Below are positions 3,081 through 35,849 of a stretch of 35,849 nt of DNA, one piece after another. The notes beneath the pieces are model-generated. The model was given only the letters and a program-made list of their open reading frames with translations, did not search any database and was not told the origin of the DNA. The DNA comes from a virus (lineage: Duplodnaviria; Heunggongvirae; Uroviricota; Caudoviricetes): positions 1 to 35,849 of the IMG/VR virus record IMGVR_UViG_3300011584_000017; one strand, given 5' to 3'. Made by a program: the position numbers and the translations under genes. Position 1 is the first letter of the stretch, and every line of letters starts with the position of its first letter.

Positions 3081-3562
3081 GACAGCAGCCCTCCCACCGT
3101 TTTACTGATATCGCTTAAGGCAGACGTTGTCGTATCCTGCAAATTATTCAGCTGCGCACTGAGATCACCGAACATATCGGACAGGGATTCATCCACCCGT
3201 TTGAGCGACAGGGTGAACTCAATCCGGCGCGGCATACCATCGCGGAAAAACTCCGTTTTAGTCTGATTCAGTCCCTCAATCACATACATGCCGTAAATCG
3301 TGCCGCTGCCTTCAATCAGGGGCCATGCTTTCCCCTGTTCTGCCATCTGCTCCAGTGCCAGCAACGACAGCCTGCCGCCTGTTATTTCCGGCATAAGAAC
3401 ACCGGAAAGCGTCAGCATGTCGTTTTCCGGTCCCAGAAACTGCGTGGACGGACGTCGGTTTACCCGACTGTTTGCCGCATGTCGCCAGCTGCGTTGATAC
3501 TGCAGTTCCTGATACGGAACGGTGCGCAGCATAAACACGTACAATCCCAGCACCATCATCAT
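3077..3562 (-). CDS. U: Tail protein U
   Basis: 161-aa ORF, size and position of P2 gpU between T and D. Confidence 0.85.
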   Translation of the reverse strand: MMMVLGLYVFMLRTVPYQELQYQRSWRHAANSRVNRRPSTQFLGPENDMLTLSGVLMPEITGGRLSLLALEQMAEQGKAWPLIEGSGTIYGMYVIEGLNQTKTEFFRDGMPRRIEFTLSLKRVDESLSDMFGDLSAQLNNLQDTTTSALSDISKTVGGLLS

Positions 3563-6500
3563 GCGTCGTATCCCCCCTGATCGCTGTAGTTACTCCTGGC
3601 TTTTGCCTTCAGCCTGCGTTCACGTTCATCAAGCTGGCGTGCCACCTCCCGCGCAATATCCTGCGCACTTTGTCCTGGCTGCGTCTGAATGATGATCTGC
3701 GTCGGTGCCTCAATCCGTTGAACGAGCGGCACAGTGGCTGCGCGACTCACAATTGCTTCTCCACCTTTCGCGGGAAGTGCCAAAGGGTGCAACGGTGGAA
3801 GCTCTGCTGGCGCGGCAGCAACGCCCATCATTCCGGCAACAACGGCAGCCAGTGCAGCTGTATTTCTCCGGCTGGTCACATTTGCCGGGCCGTTAACAAT
3901 TTCCGGCCCGTTTTCACCGACGATGCCAAACTGCCCGCGCGGGATATCCCCGCCGCTGTCATACATCCCCGCAAAGCCATATCCCCATGATGGAAAACCA
4001 CCCGATGGCATCATCACTTTACCGTCTGCATTCACCGTCGCAGGTTGCTGACGCGTCACTCTTTCCGGCAGTTTCGCCTTTGCAGCCTCTTTACTGACAA
4101 TGCCGAGTTTCTCCAGCAACCAGGAAACGCCGGATTTCAGGGAGTCCAGCGGATGCATGACCATATTCAGCCCTTCCGCCAGTGCCTCCCCGAATCGCCG
4201 CCCCATTGCCGCTGCACTCTGCAGTTCGGCAGAGGTCGACTTAACGGGCGTCAGCAGATCAGTAAACCAGCCCCACAGCGCCTGTACTTTGTCGCCAATC
4301 CACTGGAACACTGGCTTAAGCGGTTCGAATGCTGCACTGACGGGACCTGCCGCCGCTTTGAATCCTTCCACCACGCCACCAAGAAATGCGGTGATGGGTT
4401 GCCAGTATTTCCAGACAACCAGCGCCACGCCCGCCAGTGCAGTAACCACAAGACCTATCGGACTGAGCAGAGCACCTAACAGACCAGATACGGCATACAG
4501 GGCAACGCGCAGCATCGCCAGTGGACCAGATGCCAGTATTCGCAGCACCGTGCCTGCGGAGGCCAGTCCACCGCGCAGTACCGCCAGAGGATTCATAAAC
4601 ATCACAGCAACAGCACGTAAACCGGATAATCCAGACCGCAAAAGTGCAACCGGCGCACCTGCTACAGTTTTCAGGACATTTCCCGTCAGTGATGCCGTGC
4701 GGCGCAAAGACGACAACGGCGCAGTAAGTAAACCTGCGGCGTTGCCCGATGAAGCAAGCCCGCGTCGCAGCAGTGCAAGTGGTGCGCCAGCCAACCAGGA
4801 CAACGCGCTGCTGGTTCGCGTTACTGCTGCCGTAACGGAAGGTAACGTTTTGATACCCAGCACAGAGAATCCCAGACGGATGACTGCCAGCGGCCCCAGC
4901 ACAGCAGCCAACACCACAGCCAGGGTGCCGAGGCCCACAGTAACAGCAGCCACAACCGCTGCTACTTTCATCAGTGTGCCCGTCAGTTCAGGGTTAGCTT
5001 CCACCCAGCGACGCAACGCCCCCGTGATGCTTTTCACCGTGTACAGAATATCCATCAGCGGCTGGCGCAGCGTTTCGCCCAGGCTGCTGAAGGTGTTCTG
5101 CGCTCCGGTTTTGACCAGCAACCACTGCGCAGAAAGTGAGTCCTTGTTAATGTCGGATTCTTTCTGCATCGAACCGAGCGCATCATTGCCCGCTGTCAGT
5201 TTTAGCTGGCGCTGCAGTTCCGGCAGGTTGTTTGCCAGTTTCGCCGCATCATCGCCAAACTCTTTACCAAACAACATGGTCATGGCAGACAGGCGCTTAT
5301 CCTGCGGCAGTGCATTCACCTTCTCCAGTACGCGCTGGATAGTTCCCATCGCATCCTTCGTCATCTGCTTTTCAATCACTTCAGGATTGAGTTTCAGCAG
5401 ATTCATTCCTTCAAAGAAACTCTTGCTTTGCATGGTCGCAATGGACAATTCACGCACCATCGCGTTGGCAGCACTGGCAGCGACCTCCGGCGCAGCACCC
5501 AGTGTCAGGAAGGTGGAACCCAGCGCCGCCGCTTTACGATAATCCAGACGATCAGCCACACCGCCCAGGCGTTGCATGACATCAATGATGTCTGCCCCTT
5601 TCGACATAGCGTTATCATCCAGATAGTTCAGCGCATCACCGAGCTGTTCAATATTGCGGGTTGGTATTTTGTAGAGCTGGGCGATTTTCCCCAGACTTTC
5701 TGACAGTTCATCCGCTGGCAGCTCAAAGGCTGTTGCCGCCTTTGCTGCCGTACTGGCGAAGGCCAGCAGGTCACGTTTCTGGTCCTCCCAGCTGTCGTCA
5801 GGGTTTGCCACATTCATGCGCGCACCACCTTCAACCAGTGCGGCGAAGTCCACAGCACCGTTTTCCATTGGCAGCTGTTCACTGGCAGCTTTGATGGCAT
5901 CCTGCATTTCGTAAAAACGCGCAGTGCGGTTGCCATTATCGTCACGCAGACCATTGACCTGCTTTGCCACACCTTTCATGGCATCTTCCATGCTGGTATA
6001 GCTTTTTACCGCCGCCATCACTGGCGCGCCCATTGCCAGCCCTGCAGCCGTGGTGGTGGCTCCGGCTCCTGCGATGCGATCGCGCACTTCAAGCCGTCTT
6101 GAGTATTGTTCTCTGGCAGCGTTCATCCGTGCCTGTTGTTCACCCAGACGTTTAAGTGCTTTTTGCTGGCCCTCCAGTGCCTGACGAGTTTCTTCGGCAT
6201 TTTTCTTAAGTTCTCGCTGGGCACTACTGAGTTGTCTGGTATCAATCCCTGATTCTTTAAGTGCCTGACGTTGTCTCTGGACCGCCCCCAACAAGCCGTT
6301 ATAGGTCTGCTGAAGTTCCTGTACTCGTGTTTTGGCCTGACTGAATAACTTTGCCTGCGCGGCGGTTGGCCTGTTAGTGGCAGCAAATTGTGTGGCGAGT
6401 TTTGCCGCCTCTTCGCGGGCTGCGTTCAGGTTGTTGGCTGTTATGGCTAGTTGCGAGCGCGTCTTACGAAATTCATCAATTCTGCCAGCCTGCTTATTCA

Positions 6501-22892: not shown

Positions 22893-23917
22893 TGGGAAAG
22901 AGTAAGAAGAACCGCGCTGCGTCGACGAACCAGATCCAGCATAAAAGTCAAACTACAGCCGAAGCATTCAGCTTCGGTGATCCCGTTCCTGTTCTGGACC
23001 GCCGCGAACTACTGGACTATGTGGAATGCGTACAGACAGATCGCTGGTATGACCCGCCAGTGAGTTTTGACGGACTGGCGCGTACCTTTCGCGCCGCCGT
23101 GCACCACAGCTCACCGATTGCAGTGAAATGCAACATTCTGACCAGCACCTACATCCCTCACCCGCTGCTCAGCCAGCAGGCTTTTTCACGTTTTGTGCAG
23201 GACTATCTGGTTTTTGGTAACGCCTACCTGGAGAAACGCACGAACCGGTTCGGTGAAGTTATCGCCCTTGAGCCTGCTCTGGCAAAATACACCCGACGCG
23301 GATTAGACCTGGATACCTACTGGTTTGTGCAATACGGCATGACTACGCAGCCGTATCAGTTCACAAAAGGCAGCATTTTTCATCTGATGGAACCGGACAT
23401 CAACCAGGAGATCTACGGCCTGCCCGGTTATCTTTCTGCCATTCCGTCAGCCCTGCTCAACGAGTCCGCCACGCTGTTCCGCCGTAAGTATTACATTAAC
23501 GGCAGCCATGCAGGCTTCATCATGTACATGACCGATGCCGCGCAGAACCAGGAGGACGTGAACAACCTCCGCAATGCGATGAAAAGCGCCAAAGGTCCTG
23601 GCAACTTCCGCAACCTGTTTATGTACTCGCCTAACGGCAAAAAGGACGGGCTTCAGATTATCCCGTTGTCAGAGGTCGCAGCGAAGGATGAGTTTTTGAA
23701 TATCAAGAACGTGAGCCGGGATGACATGATGGCGGCGCATCGTGTGCCGCCGCAAATGATGGGGATTATGCCTAATAATGTTGGGGGGTTTGGGGATGTA
23801 GAGAAAGCCAGTTGCGTTTTTGTTCGTAACGAATTGATGCCGCTACAGAAACGGCTACAGGAACTAAATAGATGGTTGAAAGATGAAATTATCCGTTTTG
23901 CGACATACTCATTATGA
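22889..23917 (+). CDS. Q: Portal protein Q
   Basis: 342-aa ORF, size and position of P2 gpQ; followed by a terminator hairpin and the cos-proximal region. Confidence 0.9.
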   Translation: MMGKSKKNRAASTNQIQHKSQTTAEAFSFGDPVPVLDRRELLDYVECVQTDRWYDPPVSFDGLARTFRAAVHHSSPIAVKCNILTSTYIPHPLLSQQAFSRFVQDYLVFGNAYLEKRTNRFGEVIALEPALAKYTRRGLDLDTYWFVQYGMTTQPYQFTKGSIFHLMEPDINQEIYGLPGYLSAIPSALLNESATLFRRKYYINGSHAGFIMYMTDAAQNQEDVNNLRNAMKSAKGPGNFRNLFMYSPNGKKDGLQIIPLSEVAAKDEFLNIKNVSRDDMMAAHRVPPQMMGIMPNNVGGFGDVEKASCVFVRNELMPLQKRLQELNRWLKDEIIRFATYSL

Positions 23918-23950
23918 CGACAATATGTTCGCTGAACAGTAAAATATCAA

Positions 23951-23976
23951 GAAGGCCTCTTACAAGGCCTTCTTTT
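23951..23976. terminator. Bidirectional hairpin terminator between the convergent Q and AIPR-like genes
   Basis: gaaggcct-cttaca-aggccttc followed by TTTT on the plus strand; it lies 2 nt before the stop of the minus-strand gene. Confidence 0.6.
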
Positions 23977-23978
23977 AG

Positions 23979-25721
23979 TTAGAATGCGGATTTGATTTTT
24001 TTCTCAAATGCCTCATATACAGGCTGGTTCATTTGGGCCGTTGCAGTAATAAGCTGTGAAAAATTTGATATACAATCTTTAACTTTTGTAGGACTTTTCA
24101 ACCCTCCTTCAACCAGTGCAGGCAGCAACTGATTACTTAAAGCCAGACACACATCTACAATTGGCTCCCAAATACTTTCAGCCTGAGAAGGAGAGACCGC
24201 ACTTCCAAACGAAACTCTAAATAAATTAGGAACGGGACGGCCCAAAAAGTTTTCCAAACATTCGGCAATAGCCGAGCACAATAAAGGTATTGAACCACGA
24301 TGCCTGAGATATCCCAATTGAGCGCCATCATTTTTTGAAAGAGTATCTTTCTTTGCCAAAGCTATTTTCTTGTTCTCAATACACCGCATGAGAGAATACG
24401 CACAAACAATATGTGAAGCTTTTGTACTGTCATTAAAAATCTTAGAATAATGAGAGTCATTAGTCCAAATTGCAGATCGCTGATTATAAGCTACCGTCGG
24501 CTCTCCATGGAAACTCATCAAAGCTTGACCAACAGTATAAGAAGGCAGTAGATTAGTTTTTCGACGAATGACACTTTCAGCACCTCCTCGTCTTCCTCCA
24601 TCATATTCAGCATCAGGAATAGAAGCAAATTCATTTTTAAGTCGTTTTTGAATTTTGTCTGTGCTTCTGAAATCAGATGCTTCAACTTTATTCTGACTGT
24701 TATTATACTGAATTATATTCTGAATTAGATCAGCATCCGCATCTTTGACTTTTATAAATCTAGCTTGGACTTTAACTGATTCTGGAGGTAATCGTGGCAG
24801 CGTTCCTAAAGCACCTGTTGTCTGTGCTCCATTAACTATTGACATCCCTCTGATTTTAAGATTCTTTGATGCTTCATTGAATTTATATTCATGAACCAAA
24901 ACAGTTACGCCATTATTGTATGCCCAAAATTCTGATGCTGAATTTTCCGCACTGTTACGGATACCATTATTGATATTTGAATCAGATGACCTTGATCCAA
25001 GGTAGTCTCTAACATTTGCTGAAAATATTTTTAATTTATGCTTTTTGTACGCTCTAGCTAAATCTCTTCCCTGAATGGTAGTACAGAATGCATTCCAATT
25101 ATCTCCTTTTATTTCGTAGCCACCATCACTGACTTTAATATTAAAAATATCATCAACCAGTATTGGTGATAGTGATTCACTATACCATTCCGTCAACTTT
25201 TCAGTGCCTACTTCCATTGCATGCACTTGTATTTTAGCATCTTCAAAATCATGTTTTAAAATAGTTGTTGCTGTCTGCTGAACCGTAATTAGCTCTTGAG
25301 CCACATTTGTTGAAGATGGTAAGTTATGAACATACCAAACGTACAGAGTTTTAATTTTCCCTTGTTTGATTGATGTCCGTATCTGTTGAGCAGAAGATTT
25401 TATTCTATCGGGTACATCATGCAAATCTCTTTGCAGAAGCCATGCTAAAGCAATATTAAGATCACTCGCTTTATTTGCTGGAGCTTCCTGTCTATCTTTG
25501 CTTGAGAAATAGCATTGAGCAAGTACAGCAAATTCTTCTTCTTCATTAATATACACAAGGTCACATTTCTTATCGTTATGTCCATCGGTAATGGACTCTG
25601 CTGCGACACTATCAATGTCATCAATTCTAAAATGTAATGCTAACGCAAACAAAGCCAGTCCATTATCACCATACGATTTCAAATCTTCTCTTGCAGAATA
25701 GGCTTGGTTCCAGGTACTCAT
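23979..25721 (-). CDS. AIPR-like protein (candidate abortive-infection / anti-phage defence protein); prophage cargo
   Basis: 580 aa from ATG 25721, which has a strong RBS (AAGGAG 5 nt upstream); visibly AT-rich relative to the phage core; no Walker A; motifs TDGHNDKKCDLVYIN and IVNGAQTTG that I associate from memory with the AIPR family; sits between Q and cos. Confidence 0.6.
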   Translation of the reverse strand: MSTWNQAYSAREDLKSYGDNGLALFALALHFRIDDIDSVAAESITDGHNDKKCDLVYINEEEEFAVLAQCYFSSKDRQEAPANKASDLNIALAWLLQRDLHDVPDRIKSSAQQIRTSIKQGKIKTLYVWYVHNLPSSTNVAQELITVQQTATTILKHDFEDAKIQVHAMEVGTEKLTEWYSESLSPILVDDIFNIKVSDGGYEIKGDNWNAFCTTIQGRDLARAYKKHKLKIFSANVRDYLGSRSSDSNINNGIRNSAENSASEFWAYNNGVTVLVHEYKFNEASKNLKIRGMSIVNGAQTTGALGTLPRLPPESVKVQARFIKVKDADADLIQNIIQYNNSQNKVEASDFRSTDKIQKRLKNEFASIPDAEYDGGRRGGAESVIRRKTNLLPSYTVGQALMSFHGEPTVAYNQRSAIWTNDSHYSKIFNDSTKASHIVCAYSLMRCIENKKIALAKKDTLSKNDGAQLGYLRHRGSIPLLCSAIAECLENFLGRPVPNLFRVSFGSAVSPSQAESIWEPIVDVCLALSNQLLPALVEGGLKSPTKVKDCISNFSQLITATAQMNQPVYEAFEKKIKSAF

Positions 25722-25804
25722 TATCACTCCTTAGTAATAAAGTTTTAGCGAAGGTTATCTCTAAGAAGGTACATTTTCAATTCCATTTATCCCTCCAGCG
25801 CGCG

Positions 25805-25823
25805 CTCGTATCCCCGCCACGCC
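25805..25823 (-). other. Putative cos site (cohesive-end sequence)
   Basis: Minus strand reads GGCGTGGCGGGGATACGAG followed by CGCGCGCTGGAGGG, closely resembling the remembered P2/186 cohesive ends (GGCG[A/T]GGCGGGGAAAGCA...). Confidence 0.45.
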
Positions 25824-25867
25824 TGCCCGCTTTATGTAGTGGTTTTCATGCACCTGCATGATCTACG

Positions 25868-25892
25868 CAAAAGCCCGCCAGAACTGGCGGGC
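25868..25892 (-). terminator. Rho-independent terminator downstream of the lipoprotein gene
   Basis: gcccgccag-aa-ctggcgggc hairpin followed by UUUU on the minus strand. Confidence 0.5.
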
Positions 25893-25996
25893 CTTAACAC
25901 AAAAGATCCTCAAACGATCATGCGATCTCATGCAGCATAGACATGCGCGCTTATGCAGAATGTGCAAAATCGTAACATACTCAGTAAGCGTGAAAC

Positions 25997-26674
25997 CTAG
26001 AACGTGACAGCCTTGTCAAAGCCAGAAATAATTGTATAAGAAATAGACGAGTTATCAGCCTTGTTCACTTTGAACTTGGCACCTTTGTAAGCGATAACGT
26101 CACTTCCCTTAGAATCTACAGAAAAATCTGTTGTAAATGCTGCACGAGCCATATCGTTTGCAAATTCACGATAGGTGAACTTCATTACACCGCCTGCATT
26201 TCCATTGTATTCGATAGTCTTAACCAATGAGTTACTAACTCGACACAGCCCATCAGGAACACGTTTGATAGAAATTTCTGATGCAGTATAAGAAGTACCA
26301 TTTGGCGGTGATATCTCATTTTTTGCAGCATCGTAACTAACATAATCAACATAGTTACCGATTTGCCCATAGAGATTTTTTAACGCAACAGCTTGAGGGT
26401 TATGATAATTGCGGTAAATTCCATTCCCCTCACTGCAATATGTACCAGCAGCGATAGAAGACAATGCACCATTAGCCGCACCAAGTTCTAGTACGTCCGT
26501 TTTAAATCCAGTAGCAGATGTGATAATGGGATCGCCCATGTAGGCGGTAGCACTTTGCCCAATAGCAGGCTTCACCACTTCAATAGCAGTGATATTTCGG
26601 TTAGAAGCATGTGGCACGCAACCAGTTAGGATTACAGCAAGAGATATTGGTAACGCTACATTATTAATTTTCAT
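25997..26674 (-). CDS. Putative lipoprotein (candidate superinfection-exclusion / surface protein); prophage cargo
   Basis: 225 aa from ATG 26674; signal peptide with lipobox MKINNVALPISLAVILTGC; Gly/Ser/Thr/Tyr/Asn-rich mature part ending in a C-terminal Phe; AT-rich; flanked by its own terminators. Confidence 0.7.
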   Translation of the reverse strand: MKINNVALPISLAVILTGCVPHASNRNITAIEVVKPAIGQSATAYMGDPIITSATGFKTDVLELGAANGALSSIAAGTYCSEGNGIYRNYHNPQAVALKNLYGQIGNYVDYVSYDAAKNEISPPNGTSYTASEISIKRVPDGLCRVSNSLVKTIEYNGNAGGVMKFTYREFANDMARAAFTTDFSVDSKGSDVIAYKGAKFKVNKADNSSISYTIISGFDKAVTF

Positions 26675-26695
26675 TTTTAGCCTATTATTCTTTTC

Positions 26696-26733
26696 TTGAC
26701 AAAAAACAAGGCGATATCTGATTGACATCGCCT
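26696..26733 (-). terminator. Terminator of the SOS-regulated tum/DinI-like operon
   Basis: Hairpin aggcgat...atcgcct followed by a U-run (UGUUUUUUG) on the minus strand. Confidence 0.45.
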
Positions 26734-26787
26734 CTCACTCATATGTAACCCTTTTTGATTAGTAAAAACAAGCGTCTATTGACAAAA

Positions 26788-27021
26788 TCAATGCAGCCAG
26801 CTGTCGTCTTCCCACACCTTCTGCATAATTTTCATCACTTGTTTTCTTTCTTCGTCCAGTTGCAGTCCGGTCAGTTCCACACCGTTAGAGCTACCTTTAC
26901 GGATACGGATTACCGTTTTGGGATACAGGGGGCGCAGATTGCGGTAAAGCTCGGATTCAAGGGCGTCCAGGGTAGACTGGCTAATCTTCTGCTCTTTATC
27001 GATCATTATTTCAATGCGCAT
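26788..27021 (-). CDS. DinI-family protein (Tum C-terminal-domain-like, SOS-induced)
   Basis: 77 aa from ATG 27021 (MRIEIMIDKEQKISQSTLDALESELYRNL...VWEDDSWLH), clear DinI-like sequence; RBS GAGGTG 6 nt upstream; the longer track ORF from 27093 is an artefactual extension. Confidence 0.8.
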   Translation of the reverse strand: MRIEIMIDKEQKISQSTLDALESELYRNLRPLYPKTVIRIRKGSSNGVELTGLQLDEERKQVMKIMQKVWEDDSWLH

Positions 27022-27031
27022 AAAAGTCACC

Positions 27032-27220
27032 TCAGCTGATGACATCCATTGAGCGGTTGTATTCGTGGCTTCTGATTTTTGCCATGAGTTCATCAGTCAA
27101 TTCAGAAACCCACTGCAGAGCCAGCTCCTTCTCTTCATCACTACACTCACTAGCCGCTACAAGCTTAAGAAAAAAATCAATGCGCTGGAGCTTCAAAGAC
27201 TCCAAAAAATAGTCCTGCAT
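27032..27220 (-). CDS. Small acidic protein, first gene of the LexA-controlled operon (candidate antirepressor/Tum N-terminal-like)
   Basis: 62-aa ORF with RBS GGAGG; its stop TGA lies inside the RBS of the DinI-like gene (translational coupling). Confidence 0.55.
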   Translation of the reverse strand: MQDYFLESLKLQRIDFFLKLVAASECSDEEKELALQWVSELTDELMAKIRSHEYNRSMDVIS

Positions 27221-27263
27221 CTTTCCTCCTATGACACCACACGCAATGCTGTATGTATAACCA

Positions 27264-27279
27264 CTGTTTATATTTACAG
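27264..27279 (-). promoter_or_regulatory. LexA box (SOS box) overlapping the promoter of the tum/DinI-like operon
   Basis: CTGT-ttatattt-ACAG, exact CTGT-N8-ACAG with AT-rich spacer, 44-59 bp upstream of the 62-aa ORF start. Confidence 0.7.
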
Positions 27280-27374
27280 TATATAATAATCTTACTGATG
27301 TAAAACGTTTTTTTTACGCTTATCAGCCTGATATGCCTAGTATTATTAAGAGCACGAATTGTTAACCAGCGTAA

Positions 27375-29789
27375 TTAATACAGGTTCCGCCACTTATCAT
27401 CTTCCTGCAAACGCTGGTTCCGATAGAAGATACGCAGGCCTGCTCCTGACGGAATACTGCCGCCGCGAAGGAGTAAATCGACCTCTTTCTCGCTGCCATC
27501 AAATCCTCTGGATTTCAGTTCATAGACGAGCTGCTGTCGTTGATGGTCTGTAATTCGCTGTTTGTAGTCTCTACGCCGTTTCGGTTTCACCAGACGTAAC
27601 CTTGCAGCCAGTTCCCGGCGCCCCTTTTTGTTCATACTGTGCAGGTAATCGTGCAACTCCTTGTCATCCATGCGGGTAAAGTCCGTTCTGGGGCCCCCAT
27701 CAGCTGATTTATCTTTCTCCTGTTGGTTCAAATTTTCAGCAAGGGGACAGTTATTGCCACGAGTCCAAGGGGCGCAAGCGCCCTGGTCGGCTGCCGCCTC
27801 CTGAACGTCAACGGCCTTACGAACCATTTTCCACTTCACTGCATGAGTGCAGATCTTGCCCTCTGCAATGGGTGACCAGATGCCATAAATACGAATACCG
27901 TGATCGCCATAGGCGGTCGGCTCTTCGTTGATTTCATAAGCGGTTCTGATGAGGTGATATTTACGGGGAACCAGTACGCCGCCCTGCTTCATGATGTAGG
28001 TGGCATAGCAACCAGCATCAGCTGCAGCCAGAATGGCATCAAGGCGCGGGTTATCCAGTACCGGCGCACCTGCTTTTTTGTCACCCTGTTGCCTTGCCGC
28101 CTGACCAGCCAGCAATCGCAGTTCACGATAAGCCTGACGCCCCGGAATGCCAAAGAAGCGGAATTGCTGAACACGATGCAGAGACGCCCAGGCATTAACG
28201 TATTCAGCGTTATCACGCAGGGATTTACCCGTTTCCTTGCTGATCTCGCCAGCCAGACCACGCCCGTCAATGTTCTTACTGATGTATTTCGCGATGTAGC
28301 TTGTCGGCGTTCCTTTGCGCGGGTTTATCAGCTCAGATTTAAAGCGTGGACCAGTGTTATTACCCAGTTCCTCGCGGTCTTCACGGATGGCAAATTTACG
28401 CAACAATGCAGTAATGGCGCGGCGGTCTTTTTTGCGCATGAAACACAACAGGTGCCAGTGAACTGTACCGTCATGATGCGGCTCAGCCACCCGCACGCCA
28501 TACCAGCGCAACCCGGCTTTGTGCATCGCCTTACGAAATGCAGCAAACATGCCGACCAGATAATCGCTGCTTTGTCTTACCGTCGCATTTGTCCAGGTTG
28601 GGTTTGGTCTGCCGTTATTGAGCGTGGAATGGAAACGTGACGGACAGGTAATGGTGTAGAAAACGGCGCAGTCACCGCGCATTTCCGCGATAAGCTCCAG
28701 ACCTTTAACACAGGCCATCATCTCATTGCGGCGGTGCGCCGGGTTGCTGCTGCTGGCGTTTACCACGTCTTCCATATCCAGCGTGTCGCCCTCTTCGTTC
28801 ACCAGTTCATGAGAACGGAAAAACTCCAGTGACTTGCGGCGCTGCTCACGTTTATGCATCACGGCTTCATAGCTGACATAGGGAGATGCTTTTTTGCTGA
28901 CCAGGCAGACAGCACGCAACTGCTCTTCCCGCCATTCGCAACGCATTTTCCATAATTTCCGGTACCACCAGTCGGCGCACAACATACGCGCCAGCGAACC
29001 CGGAATGAGTTCATAGGGCACGGGTTTACGGCGGTTTCTTTTCCGACGGAGTTGCTCAAACGCAGGCGGGATGACATCCAGACGCAGGGTTTCCGCTGCC
29101 ACCTTTTCCCATGTCTTGCGGATTTCTTCTGGCTTAACGTCATCGGTGGCATACAAATCACCACAAGCTGCATCAAGGCACATGCTCATATGCGCAGCGA
29201 CAAGGGTAGACAGGCGTTTCACCTGATCCTGACTCATTTCAGGCAGGATCAGCAGGCCGTCCAGCCCTACATGGCTTGCCATAAAACGAAAAGATGCAGA
29301 TAGCTGGCTGTCGCGTACATGCTCCAGTCGTTCCAGACATGGCTTAATCGTCTCACGTAAATAGCGGGAATAAGCCTTTGGCCTGCCCAGGCTGCTGAAG
29401 TATTCAATACGTTGCATCAGCGGCTTGCTGATATGAGAAGGCTGGGCGTTGACGTCCGCCAGAATGACCATATCCGGATTAAAACGCTGCTGCTCATGCG
29501 CCAGCTTTGCCCGGCTAATGAGCTTATCCTGCTCCATTTCGTGCTGGACAGGATCACGTGATTCATTAAAAAAATAACGCTCCCAGACCTGATCACTCAG
29601 TGCCTCGCGGCGCAACTGTTCCTGCTCGTTATCGGCAGCGTACAGAGTGATCAGGTTTGAAAGCGCAGAAACCGGCGCAACTTCCGCCGGGTCCAGATAA
29701 GGGTTAATGGCCTTTTTCGGGCTGTTCCATGAGAACGCTGCGGCAACCTCGTTAAAGCCGTAGCAGTTGTTCATATCGGCATGGCTCAT
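27375..29789 (-). CDS. A: Replication initiation protein A (rolling-circle initiator)
   Basis: 804-aa ORF in the gpA position at the end of the early operon; ATGA overlap with the upstream methylase gene. Confidence 0.88.
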
Positions 29790-31590: not shown

Positions 31591-31839
31591 ATGTTGAACC
31601 CGGTTGAAAGAGAGCGTTTAGAGCAACTTGAAAACGAGATCTCCAGTCTTCGCGATGAGCTTGCTGTTCAACGAATTCTTGTTTCAGGTCTGATCCACTC
31701 CTTATTTCGAACTGACTCAGCAAATCAATCTGCATTTTTTGAGCTCCTCCGCGAAGAATTAAACAAACTTCCTTTAGGTTCGGTTAAACAACAAGAATTC
31801 ACTCATCTGATACAGACACTGATAGATCGTTACCGATAA
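31591..31839 (+). CDS. Hypothetical small coiled-coil protein encoded opposite to the early operon
   Basis: 82-aa ORF with RBS GAAGGAA 6 nt before ATG; protein-like composition; overlaps a less convincing minus-strand ORF (31499-31735). Confidence 0.45.
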   Translation: MLNPVERERLEQLENEISSLRDELAVQRILVSGLIHSLFRTDSANQSAFFELLREELNKLPLGSVKQQEFTHLIQTLIDRYR

Positions 31840-33134: not shown

Positions 33135-33767
33135 ATGTTAAACATCAGAATGGGTTCCGATACGGGAGGTAAGGCAGCTATTGAGAGGCTGCTTAAGGCT
33201 TATGGATTCACAACTAAGCAGGCATTAAGCGAGCACCTGAATGTCTCAAAAAGTACTATGGCAAACAGAGTGTTACGTGACAGCTTTCCTGCTGACTGGA
33301 TAATTCAGTGTGCACTAGAAACCGGTGTTTCGTTACTTTGGTTAGCCACAGGACAGGGAAGCATGAAAGAAGGATACGAGTCTGAGAAAAGATCTCATAA
33401 CGAGAACAAACAAGCAATTAAACCGTTATCCAAACTCATAACTCCATCTATTCCTAAAGGAACCTTGGAAAATGGGCAACTCAGTATTGATGAAGAGATT
33501 TTCCTAGACCACAGCATATTACCTGCAGATTATGAAGAATCGATGTTCTTAGAAACCCCTACTGATTGTTATCTCATCGATAAATCAGTTAAACAAGTCA
33601 GCAATGGATTCTGGCTTATCAATATTGATGGAATGATTATTATTGCAAAAATCATGCGGATTCCCGGCAATAAAATTGTAGTAAATCAAGATGAAGCGTC
33701 TTTCGAGTGCTCTGCTGATGATGTGGAAGTTATTGGGCGTGCAGTCAAAGTAATAAAGAGTATCTAA
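33135..33767 (+). CDS. cI: Immunity repressor CI (phage 186 CI type, no LexA-like autocleavage domain seen)
   Basis: 210-aa ORF with N-terminal HTH (TTKQALSEHLNVSKSTMANRV); no G-x-S-M peptidase motif; co-directional with int and ends 2 nt before it. Confidence 0.82.
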   Translation: MLNIRMGSDTGGKAAIERLLKAYGFTTKQALSEHLNVSKSTMANRVLRDSFPADWIIQCALETGVSLLWLATGQGSMKEGYESEKRSHNENKQAIKPLSKLITPSIPKGTLENGQLSIDEEIFLDHSILPADYEESMFLETPTDCYLIDKSVKQVSNGFWLINIDGMIIIAKIMRIPGNKIVVNQDEASFECSADDVEVIGRAVKVIKSI

Positions 33768-33769
33768 AC

Positions 33770-34786
33770 ATGACTGTCAGAAAACAGCCAAACGGTAAAT
33801 GGTTGTGCGAGTGCTATCCCAATGGACGCAATGGCAAGCGCGTGCGTAAGCAATTTGCTACGAAAGGCGAAGCCATTGCTTTTGAAAGCTTCACAATGGA
33901 AGAAGTGAACAAAAAACCATGGCTGGGGGAAAAGGAAGATCGGCGACACCTATCGGAATTAATTGAGCAGTGGTATTCCCTGTATGGTCAAACACTCGCA
34001 GACCCCAAGCGCCTCATGGCGAAACTTAGAATTATCTGTAATGGTCTAGGCGATCCCATCGCCTCAGAACTGACAGCTGGTGACTTTACGAAATACCGTG
34101 AAGCACGGTTAAAAGGTGAAGTAAGAAATGAAGATGGCACGCTTATGTCGCCCGTTAAGCCCCGCACGGTAAACCTTGAACAGCGCAATCTATCATCGGT
34201 GTTCGGTACATTAAAAAAACTAGGACACTGGTCAGCACCAAACCCGCTGGCAGGACTTCCGACCTTCAAAATTGCCGAAGGTGAGCTAGCTTTTCTTTCC
34301 GCGGACGAAATCAAACGCCTGCTTAATGCCTGCGCCGAATCTCAAAATGCCAGCCTACTAATGATTGCAAAAATATGTTTGGCTACTGGTGCACGATGGA
34401 GTGAAGCAGAAAACCTGCAGGGTCACCAAATATCGAAATACCGAATTACTTATACAAAGACCAAAGGCAAGAAAAACAGAACAGTACCGATATCACAGGA
34501 ACTGTATGACGAACTCCCGAAGAACAGAGGGAAGTTATTCACGCCATGTAGAAAAGCCTTTGAACGAGCAGTAAAGCGAGCCGGCATCGAGTTGCCAGAG
34601 GGCCAGTGCACCCACGTACTGCGCCATACATTCGCCAGCCATTTTATGATGAACGGCGGAAATATACTGGTACTGCGAGATATTCTTGGTCATGCTGACA
34701 TAAAAATGACGATGGTTTACGCTCACTTTTCTCCGGATCATCTTGAAGATGCTGTAACAAAAAACCCTTTGTATACTTTGGTTTAA
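33770..34786 (+). CDS. int: Tyrosine integrase (P2 Int family)
   Basis: 338-aa ORF with C-terminal catalytic region (...HVLRHTFASHFMMNGGNILVLRDILGHADIKMTMVYAHF) containing the R-H-R-Y signature. Confidence 0.95.
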   Translation: MTVRKQPNGKWLCECYPNGRNGKRVRKQFATKGEAIAFESFTMEEVNKKPWLGEKEDRRHLSELIEQWYSLYGQTLADPKRLMAKLRIICNGLGDPIASELTAGDFTKYREARLKGEVRNEDGTLMSPVKPRTVNLEQRNLSSVFGTLKKLGHWSAPNPLAGLPTFKIAEGELAFLSADEIKRLLNACAESQNASLLMIAKICLATGARWSEAENLQGHQISKYRITYTKTKGKKNRTVPISQELYDELPKNRGKLFTPCRKAFERAVKRAGIELPEGQCTHVLRHTFASHFMMNGGNILVLRDILGHADIKMTMVYAHFSPDHLEDAVTKNPLYTLV

Positions 34787-34790
34787 CAAA

Positions 34791-35849
34791 ATGAAAATTA
34801 AACTAACATCAATCATTGCCTATACCATTATATCTATTATTATTGCACTAGGTTTAGTGTATACCAATAGACCAAGAATCTTTGTTTTATTTAGCATATT
34901 TCATATCCTTGGTGTGGTTGTTATATTCTATTATTTCAACTGGTTAAAACTTAATGAGAAAAACCTATTAAAGCAGCCATTATTTATAGCTTCAATTATC
35001 ATACCGTTAGAAATGTTTATTTTGTATGGCCTTTGGGCATGGAAAGGTCACAGTTTAGATTTTACGTCAGAAGGCTTTAATCAATTCTTAGATATCTCTA
35101 AATTACCATTGTTAATTTTAGCTTCTTCTGTTCCTCTTGCATCAATAGTAAATAATATACACAGAACAACTCAGACAGAGAATCAGATTGAAAAAACACA
35201 AAAACAAATCAATCTTGTAATTGAAAAGAATAAAACTGATTCTTATTACTCACATCTAAAAAGTTACGCGGATATTTTTAAAACACTACCGGCTTTTAAA
35301 ATATCAAGATTAAACAAAAATGATGGAAGCACGGAATACATTGAATTATCTGTCGTTCATCCTTACACTCTCTACAAAAATATATTCAAATCATCTTCAA
35401 TCGATAATGGATATAGCACCACGGTCGAAGATGGCTTCATAAAAAAAACAAAACACCTTTATAACAAAATAAACAAAAGCCTTACATCAAAAAATACTAC
35501 TCATGATATCCAATTATCTAATCTGCAACTAATAGAATCACACATAATTGAACTATGCCGATTACTTGGGATTGACTATAAATACCAAGAACATCTATTT
35601 CTAATAATTTTTGAGAATCCCAAACATAATATAGAATCAATAACTATCTCATATAGTGATGAAAAACAACTTAAGCAAATGCTTTGGGGGCTAAGAAACA
35701 TTCTCATTGAACTATATATTTTAATTGACGAAGACCCCAATATTTTTCTAGCAAGCAAAAATACTGGTAACGTCATCCCTGATTATGCCCTATATTTTGA
35801 AAATCTGTTTACACACATTCTCCCTATCTCAAATAAAATGCGTATGTGA
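34791..35849 (+). CDS. Hypothetical membrane protein (about 4 N-terminal TM helices plus Lys/Asn/Ile-rich soluble domain); candidate prophage-expressed exclusion/defence factor
   Basis: 352-aa ORF starting 4 nt after the int stop, ending with TGA at the last window base; extremely AT-rich compared with the phage core; weak RBS. Confidence 0.6.
   Translation: MKIKLTSIIAYTIISIIIALGLVYTNRPRIFVLFSIFHILGVVVIFYYFNWLKLNEKNLLKQPLFIASIIIPLEMFILYGLWAWKGHSLDFTSEGFNQFLDISKLPLLILASSVPLASIVNNIHRTTQTENQIEKTQKQINLVIEKNKTDSYYSHLKSYADIFKTLPAFKISRLNKNDGSTEYIELSVVHPYTLYKNIFKSSSIDNGYSTTVEDGFIKKTKHLYNKINKSLTSKNTTHDIQLSNLQLIESHIIELCRLLGIDYKYQEHLFLIIFENPKHNIESITISYSDEKQLKQMLWGLRNILIELYILIDEDPNIFLASKNTGNVIPDYALYFENLFTHILPISNKMRM

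Follow-up and report, generated by a model that had tools for sequence, protein, structure and literature searches.

A membrane-protein cargo gene between the integrase and the attachment site of a 186/P2-like prophage as a candidate phage-defence gene

What is an AT-rich gene doing at the very end of a temperate phage record, directly behind the integrase? The 35,849-nt Caudoviricetes record IMGVR_UViG_3300011584_000017 (hereafter the window, meaning this whole stretch of DNA) closes with an open reading frame (ORF) for a 352-aa protein, which a preliminary description made from the sequence alone had taken for a membrane protein co-expressed with the repressor and integrase genes cI and int, and either an exclusion or abortive-infection factor or a foreign gene lying just outside the prophage. 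We find that the gene is inside a 186/P2-like prophage, wedged between the int stop codon and one arm of the attachment (att) site, in an interval that serves related phages as a swappable cargo slot. From this context the gene would be a good phage-defence candidate, and we tentatively favour the possibility that it encodes a lysogen-expressed membrane anti-phage protein, probably acting by abortive infection. The relevant features of the window are:

698–1060, + strand: complete host ssrA gene (transfer-messenger RNA, tmRNA), found with ARAGORN
1035–1060: att core at the left prophage border, the ssrA 3' end, GGGTTCAACTCCCGCCAGCTCCACCA
1108–1157: three ATGGCGRCA repeats inside the left border, taken as integrase (Int) arm-type sites of the other att arm
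33135–33767, + strand: 186-type CI repressor (Phage_CI_repr and Phage_CI_C), first gene of the presumed lysogenic operon cI-int-ORF
33770–34786, + strand: tyrosine integrase (Int_N and Phage_integrase)
34787–34790, + strand: 4-nt spacer CAAA from the int stop to the start of the ORF
34791–35849, + strand: the complete 352-aa ORF, single-gene cargo cassette of the int-att slot

Does the gene belong to the phage? The window starts with smpB and contains a complete tmRNA gene at 698–1060, and the phage is therefore integrated at ssrA, with the window cut at gene boundaries. The right attachment site, attR, is not visible in the window, as had been remarked earlier, and lies only a short distance outside it. 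Over positions 33700–35849 the window matches Escherichia coli MFDS1016424 at 100% identity and four further complete genomes at 99.9%. In MFDS1016424, ATGGCGACAAAATGGCGACAG stands directly 3' of the ORF stop, and GGGTTCAACTCCCGCCAGCTCCACCA, the second ssrA 3' end, begins 132 nt past it, so that locating attR, the check proposed at the time, places the core beyond the gene. The same 132-nt distance is found in 100%-, 99.9%- and 82%-identical genomes, the order of ORF, arm-type sites and core is kept in KE58, the 82%-identical relative, and in a phage carrying another cargo gene, and a partial ssrA is annotated by PGAP directly after another allele of the family.

The arm-type sites place the gene more precisely. 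Two further arm-type repeats lie beyond the window, after the ORF stop and before the second ssrA core, and the ORF runs onto the first of them: its TGA (35847–35849) forms the final three bases of the window, so the frame seen to reach the last base is complete, and its final A opens the first repeat (ATGGCGACA). Within the window ATGGCGRCA has five matches against 1.03 expected, three of them in the cluster at 1108–1157. The phage 186 record lists the same 3 + 2 arrangement of Int arm-type sites around attP and gives the consensus YAYCGCCAYTY, with which the repeats of this prophage, read on the other strand, agree at 9/11 positions. With the att core on its far side and not between it and int, the gene lies inside the prophage.

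The alternative that it belongs to a host or foreign island beyond attR, or is no functional gene at all, drew on the missing attR and on a base composition sharply unlike that of the phage core. The compositional contrast is real, and the ORF is far more AT-rich than its surroundings, as first described (29.6% GC and 25.8% GC at third codon positions, vs. 46.3% for int, 39.8% for cI, and 50.7% for the whole window). An outside location is nevertheless contradicted by the core behind the gene, by the 4-nt spacer to int, and by the placement of other copies, since all 12 near-full-length E. coli copies (12/12) and the three distant ones inspected lie directly behind cI-int. As to function, a random open frame of 352 codons has a chance of ~7e-13 at the ORF's own base composition, homologues of the protein reach E = 6e-171 and 76% identity, and dN/dS relative to an 82%-identical allele is 0.13; the ORF is therefore a real gene under purifying selection. 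It also belongs to a sizeable family: an HMM scan of 1.84 billion cluster representatives (50% identity) returned 917 at E ≤ 1e-3, of which 176 reached E ≤ 1e-30. We consider this alternative refuted.

When would the gene be expressed? Co-transcription with cI and int in the lysogen, proposed at the outset, finds support in the architecture of the locus: the ORF starts 4 nt after the int stop on the same strand, no terminator-like hairpin was found between cI and the att core, the first on the + strand lying ~50 nt past the core, and the layout follows that of phage 186. There, the annotated lysogenic operon (transcribed from pL, and from pE during establishment) comprises cI, int and Orf69, with a predicted terminator beyond attP. 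Promoter-like matches do not rise above shuffled expectation. We infer that the gene closes the cI-int lysogenic operon, and as such it would be made in every lysogen and during establishment. No Shine–Dalgarno-like sequence was found upstream of its ATG, and many alleles of the family overlap the int stop by 4 nt, both of which point to translational coupling; translation of the ORF is thus probably coupled to that of int, or relies on re-initiation.

The 186 gene at the corresponding place, Orf69 (CP69), is like the ORF in position and strand (cI, int, ORF, arm-type sites, att core). Its product, however, is an 83-aa repetitive peptide without similarity to the protein studied here (hhalign probability 0.1%), and 186 integrates at a tRNA-Ile gene whereas this prophage sits at ssrA. 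The 186 peptide (2658–2909, − strand) is a chain of LAPDGTYVGG-like repeats.

Is the gene a fixed part of the phage or cargo? In 80 IMG/VR loci whose integrases are 89–96% identical to the one in the window, we determined how far the ssrA core lies from the int stop. The slot is empty in 15/80 loci, where the core lies 136 bp from the int stop and the arm repeats follow int directly, and it is also empty in Fels-2. Elsewhere in the survey the distance ranges from 783 to 2794 bp, and the occupied slots hold at least eight unrelated cargo families. In 54/58 loci the first cargo ORF has the same orientation as int, and 45 of these 54 begin between −8 and +14 nt from the int stop. The occupants include:

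21 ORFs: a 395–414-aa RES-like family (phrog_7835), which in phage Cartapus bears the annotation putative RES protein
19 ORFs: the family of the present gene
8 ORFs: GapS1 (NF047931)
3 ORFs: an anti-phage dCTP deaminase (NF041025, PADLOC dCTPase), on the opposite strand
2 ORFs: a 220-aa membrane protein
2 loci: a dCTP-deaminase-like/ThyX pair
1 ORF: a SMEK_N protein

Cargo of another family also fills the slot in the genome records of phages Cartapus and RE-2010, and GapS1 is likewise found in Klebsiella phage ST437-OXA245phi4.1. The GapS1, dCTP deaminase and RES-like co-occupants share with the present gene the cassette position, mostly the strand, and a tight junction to int, and like it they are single-gene, AT-rich cargo. 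They differ in being soluble proteins unrelated to it, and only GapS1 and the deaminase carry an anti-phage assignment. The family of the present gene and the RES-like gene are also found stacked in tandem in Klebsiella and E. coli.

The main text of a recent survey (PMC13586616, NAR 2026) describes the same integrase-att interval of P2-like phages as a minor defence hotspot, with cargo that is mobilised inside the att sites, and assigns it 3% of P2 defence systems, a count that covers only systems recognised by DefenseFinder and PADLOC. The family studied here is neither named, tested nor tool-recognised in that main text, and the searched passages of the original hotspot paper (PMC9122126) do not mention the int-att interval. 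The slot as a defence locus has thus already been described, and it is the protein family itself, a fairly large one, that is uncharacterised.

This swapping bears on the idea that the gene is a module for prophage integration, excision or maintenance, for instance by modulating Int or stabilising lysogeny. Its placement would suit such a role, as it begins 4 nt past int and ends on the first arm-type site, and in some alleles the frame even crosses both arm sites. Yet sister phages do without it, the slot being empty in 15/80 of them and in Fels-2 and filled with unrelated proteins in others, so the gene is dispensable for recombination. A multi-pass membrane protein is also an improbable recombination factor, and family members are found away from any integrase. 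A recombination or maintenance module is therefore very improbable.

The edges of the cassettes can be traced in part. The last ~16 nt of int vary with the type of cargo, which puts the left cassette junction inside the int 3' end. In the window (34771–34786) and in the int 3' ends of loci L001–L003 and L035, the last five to ten int codons depend on what follows, with the tail reading ...PLYTLV before the present family, ...PLFNLK before the RES-like gene, and ...NLNWHR before an empty slot; the C-terminal tail of Int thus appears to travel with the cassette. Two stacked cassettes, a gene of the present family followed by a 397-aa RES-like gene, were seen in loci L009–L011, L018 and L113 (K. 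aerogenes, Citrobacter, and E. coli ZYS9073). In L009–L011 and L018 a relic arm-like repeat marks the end of the first gene and the full repeat pair follows the second, and this relic repeat suggests that cassettes are added by recombination at the arm repeats. At the right edge, several cargo ORFs (L049, L057, L068, L086, and L100) have no stop codon of their own, and their frame crosses both arm sites (tggcgacaa.ttggcggcagagcattaa), which yields a common tail G(G/D)xLAAEH. The C-terminal tail GDxLAAEH, present on many family members, was considered as a protein motif and rejected as read-through into Int arm-type DNA; it is also found on an unrelated 222-aa membrane protein in the slot.

How widely is the family distributed? 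It occurs in Enterobacterales, Vibrio and Pseudomonas. A word-seeded search returned 77 homologues, all labelled hypothetical, and those named to species were all Enterobacterales. Among complete E. coli genomes, 42/5,426 carry a copy detectable at the DNA level, in each case a single chromosomal one, and no plasmid-borne copy of the family was seen. A 37-kb circular "plasmid" record with a family member was considered as an excised phage and rejected, as its recN, bamE and frameshifted genes mark it as a chimeric assembly. Beyond this assembly, phage records gave matches only in a Klebsiella phage, with 38% identity across 57% of the protein length, and, weakly, in four Vibrio prophages.

Family members directly follow cI-int in Klebsiella aerogenes, Citrobacter, Lelliottia, other E. 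coli prophages, and metagenomic contigs, and an integrase fragment in Kosakonia. In Vibrio phage 10N.286.52.F6_PE001 a homologue with 29% identity (3317–4996) starts 1 nt past a LexA/S24-type repressor gene, at the extreme end of a 15-kb Vinavirales prophage in which a P2 gpA-like replication protein is encoded as well; the repressor-coupled arrangement thus recurs in an unrelated type of virus. Other positions are known as well: just downstream of the portal and an Ogr/Delta-type gene in a P2-like contig, possibly the classical gpA-portal hotspot, in an island resembling an integrative and conjugative element (ICE) in Dickeya, and downstream of umuDC in Pseudomonas chlororaphis.

What kind of protein does the gene encode? 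Four transmembrane (TM) helices precede a soluble domain, and the chain divides as follows:

34794–35156, + strand: N-terminal membrane region, residues 2–122 (hydropathy and AlphaFold model)
34794–34862, 34872–34934, 34977–35042 and 35100–35156, + strand: TM1, TM2, TM3 and TM4
34941–35270, + strand: conserved core, residues 51–160
35271–35846, + strand: fast-evolving C-terminal alpha/beta domain, residues 161–352, predicted to be cytoplasmic

A hydropathy scan places the hydrophobic segments at about residues 5–25, 29–49, 63–83 and 103–122, and the AlphaFold model, built from 54 homologues (pLDDT 82, pTM 0.65), has helices at 2–24, 28–48, 63–84 and 104–163, followed by the alpha/beta domain to residue ~334; TM4 extends into a 60-residue helix (104–163). 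These predictions, together with the residue composition (I 13.9%, L 13.1%, K 8.2%, S 8.2%, N 7.4%), agree with the initial view of about four N-terminal TM helices and a Lys/Asn/Ile-rich soluble domain. TM1 is missing in ~40% of family members, judged from gap fractions. Conservation reaches its maximum at residues 97–132 (35079–35186), which comprise TM4 and the juxtamembrane motif NNIHRTxQTExQI: column entropy is 0.3–0.9 bits at residues 97–128 (TM4 and NNIHRTxQ) vs. 2.3–2.9 bits in TM1–2 and the C-terminal domain, and H124, R125, Q128, Q132, N147 and K157 are among the invariant residues.

The C-terminal domain behaves differently. Across alleles behind near-identical integrases, identity to the window protein is 45–90% in the core and 15–71% in the C-terminal domain, and dN/dS relative to the 82%-identical allele rises from 0.05 in the core to 0.19 in the C-terminal domain, with int at 0.04. 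Homology between the C-terminal domains of three clades is nonetheless retained (hhalign 96%, E 2e-9), which indicates that the domain diverges and is not replaced. By Lys/Arg counts, the loop at residues 49–62 and the segment after TM4 are the more positive ones, and on this charge pattern alone the domain is predicted to be cytoplasmic. The only sizeable predicted periplasmic loop, residues 85–103, is short and conserved, with G95 and F99 invariant.

How might such a protein act? In the reading we tentatively favour, a single polypeptide would serve as both sensor and effector. The conserved TM3–TM4 hairpin and the juxtamembrane helix NNIHRTxQTExQI would be the part that acts on the membrane. 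Sensing or specificity would fall to the fast-evolving, predicted cytoplasmic C-terminal domain, which would recognise some component of the infecting phage, and recognition would switch the membrane module so that the inner membrane is permeabilised or depolarised and infection is aborted. This proposal draws on the promoter-less cassette in a slot that holds anti-phage genes in other phages, the presumed expression in the lysogen, the invariant hairpin and helix, and the diverging, predicted cytoplasmic domain. Since the protein matches no PADLOC, NCBIfam or Pfam model and has no significant structural neighbour in PDB or BFVD, it is the conservation pattern alone that assigns the sensor and effector parts.

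The whole could be a single-chain functional analogue, without homology, of lambda RexA/RexB, whose genes likewise belong to the repressor operon (cI-rexA-rexB) and are expressed in the lysogen. In that system the four-TM membrane protein RexB is coupled to the cytoplasmic sensor RexA, and the pair causes abortive infection by membrane depolarisation. Rex consists of two polypeptides and the present system of one, and homology between them was rejected, the family profile giving hhalign probabilities of 0.2% with RexA and 0.1% with RexB. A bolder version of the proposal, which we regard as doubtful, would see in the family a new class of single-chain membrane immune receptors, in which a hypervariable cytoplasmic domain binds a phage protein and gates a pore formed by TM4 and the juxtamembrane helix (H124, R125, Q128, and Q132), encoded by a promoter-less cassette able to plug into the repressor operons of unrelated temperate elements such as 186-like myoviruses and Vibrio tectivirus-like prophages. 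The fold has no relative among solved structures.

The predicted topology also speaks to the main mechanistic rival, superinfection exclusion, in which an inner-membrane protein blocks DNA entry or another early membrane step without killing the cell. P22 SieA, T4 Imm and HK97 gp15 are phage-encoded inner-membrane proteins that protect the cell from other phages in this manner, and a predicted inner-membrane protein made from a lysogenic operon, in a slot whose hotspot context applies equally to exclusion, could be another. However, if the protein contacted the varied parts of incoming phages, variation would be expected on the outside, whereas the variable part is predicted to be cytoplasmic and the periplasmic loop at 85–103 is short and conserved. 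SieA, Imm and gp15 are moreover small and act on DNA entry, while the present protein has a 190-residue variable domain predicted to lie inside the cell. Exclusion thus seems rather improbable.

Several results weigh against the sensor-effector reading, beginning with the homology searches. As had been stated from inspection, the protein holds no recognisable motif: it has no match in Pfam at E ≤ 1, in NCBIfam 20.0 at E ≤ 0.1, or in PADLOC-DB 2.0 at E ≤ 10, and the same profile searches did detect its slot neighbours GapS1 and dCTP deaminase. The sole profile match is phrog_17460 of PHROGs v4 (E = 1.7e-47, residues 34–307), which has no functional annotation. Searching PDB sequences with the family profile gave chance matches only (E > 1), Foldseek against BFVD returned nothing at E ≤ 0.001, and there is thus no significant structural neighbour in PDB or BFVD. 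The protein does not show the hallmark of HEPN-fold RNases such as AbiV, a conserved Rx4-6H catalytic motif within a four-helix domain, and a literature search returned no paper that cites the family accessions or the PHROG, nor do the DefensePredictor supplements contain the accessions. The HMM and structure searches called for earlier therefore produced the phrog_17460 match and neither a functional family nor a structural relative.

Other points on the same side come from the gene and its setting. In the C-terminal domain, P191, L194 and Y195 are the only residues conserved family-wide; all dN/dS values are below 1 and so give no direct sign of positive selection; and hotspots also hold non-defence genes. 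A gene of 29.6% GC in E. coli could, in addition, be silenced by H-NS. The exclusion or abortive-infection role first suggested is strengthened as a candidate by the GapS1 and anti-phage dCTP deaminase genes that near-identical phages carry in this slot, while neither homology nor structure ties the family to defence.

Only context provides such a tie, and the strongest rival is a lysogenic-conversion or accessory role outside defence, be it envelope modification, fitness under stress or in colonisation, or interference with satellites, plasmids or bacteriocins. In other temperate phages the neighbourhood of int and att is a classical seat of conversion genes, such as gtr and oac of Shigella and Salmonella phages, and the AT-rich, horizontally mobile character of the gene and its lack of detectable defence homology would fit as well. 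However, the Pfam search of the protein gave no GtrA-like, glycosyltransferase, acyltransferase, enzyme or transporter domain, the identifiable slot occupants in sister phages are anti-phage genes, and the extreme allelic divergence of a single domain behind near-identical integrases is better matched to an arms race than to a conversion function of housekeeping type. We therefore consider an accessory role unlikely, and retain the abortive-infection reading as the tentative favourite.

Should the gene prove to be a defence gene, a sizeable unannotated family (917 clusters at 50% identity) would join the anti-phage repertoire, with a simple layout to dissect, namely a conserved membrane module and a swappable recognition domain on one polypeptide. 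The int-att slot of 186-like phages would then also be a far richer reservoir than counts of known systems imply, as two uncharacterised families together occupy ~40/80 surveyed loci. For mapping specificity determinants, the natural allelic series behind near-identical integrases offers a ready resource. Without a phage phenotype, the gene would be one more prophage moron.

The surroundings of the prophage and other parts of the window carry further cargo. Downstream flanks beyond the right att core differ between genomes; different integration sites were considered as the cause and rejected, as the site is ssrA in every case and the neighbouring islands vary. Immediately past the core a further integrase-bearing island is often present, also at ssrA (10474–12158 in L001, 6391–7654 in L108/L109, and 8740–9981 in L011), and some of these islands carry defence genes, including a Hachiman-like HamA/helicase pair and retron Ec48-type genes. 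ssrA is a tandem-island site.

Within the window, the hotspot between gpA (27375–29789) and the portal gene encodes a 582-aa AIPR/AbiU-like protein (23979–25727, − strand; Pfam AIPR 1.8e-34, PADLOC AbiU 1.9e-34) and a 243-aa protein without a match (25997–26728, − strand), in a region of 35–43% GC. In MFDS1016424 (NZ_CP106924.1), compared with window positions 23600–27700, a reverse-transcriptase family protein and two hypothetical proteins replace the AIPR protein. As this genome is identical to the window over 33700–35849 and differs at the gpA-portal hotspot, the two cargo slots of one phage lineage swap independently.

A second border-adjacent position, between the left att arm sites and an ogr-like gene, is taken by a 160-aa ORF (1184–1666, + strand), which has a weak PADLOC match to the candidate system PDC-S48 (1.9e-07) and no Pfam match. 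An ORF of equal length occupies this place in phage Cartapus, where it is labelled a putative exonuclease; the two are likened by length and place alone. Finally, the early lytic operon region contains an 82-aa ORF that runs on the opposite strand (31591–31839, + strand). The matching genome labels it hypothetical, and it may represent a further small moron.

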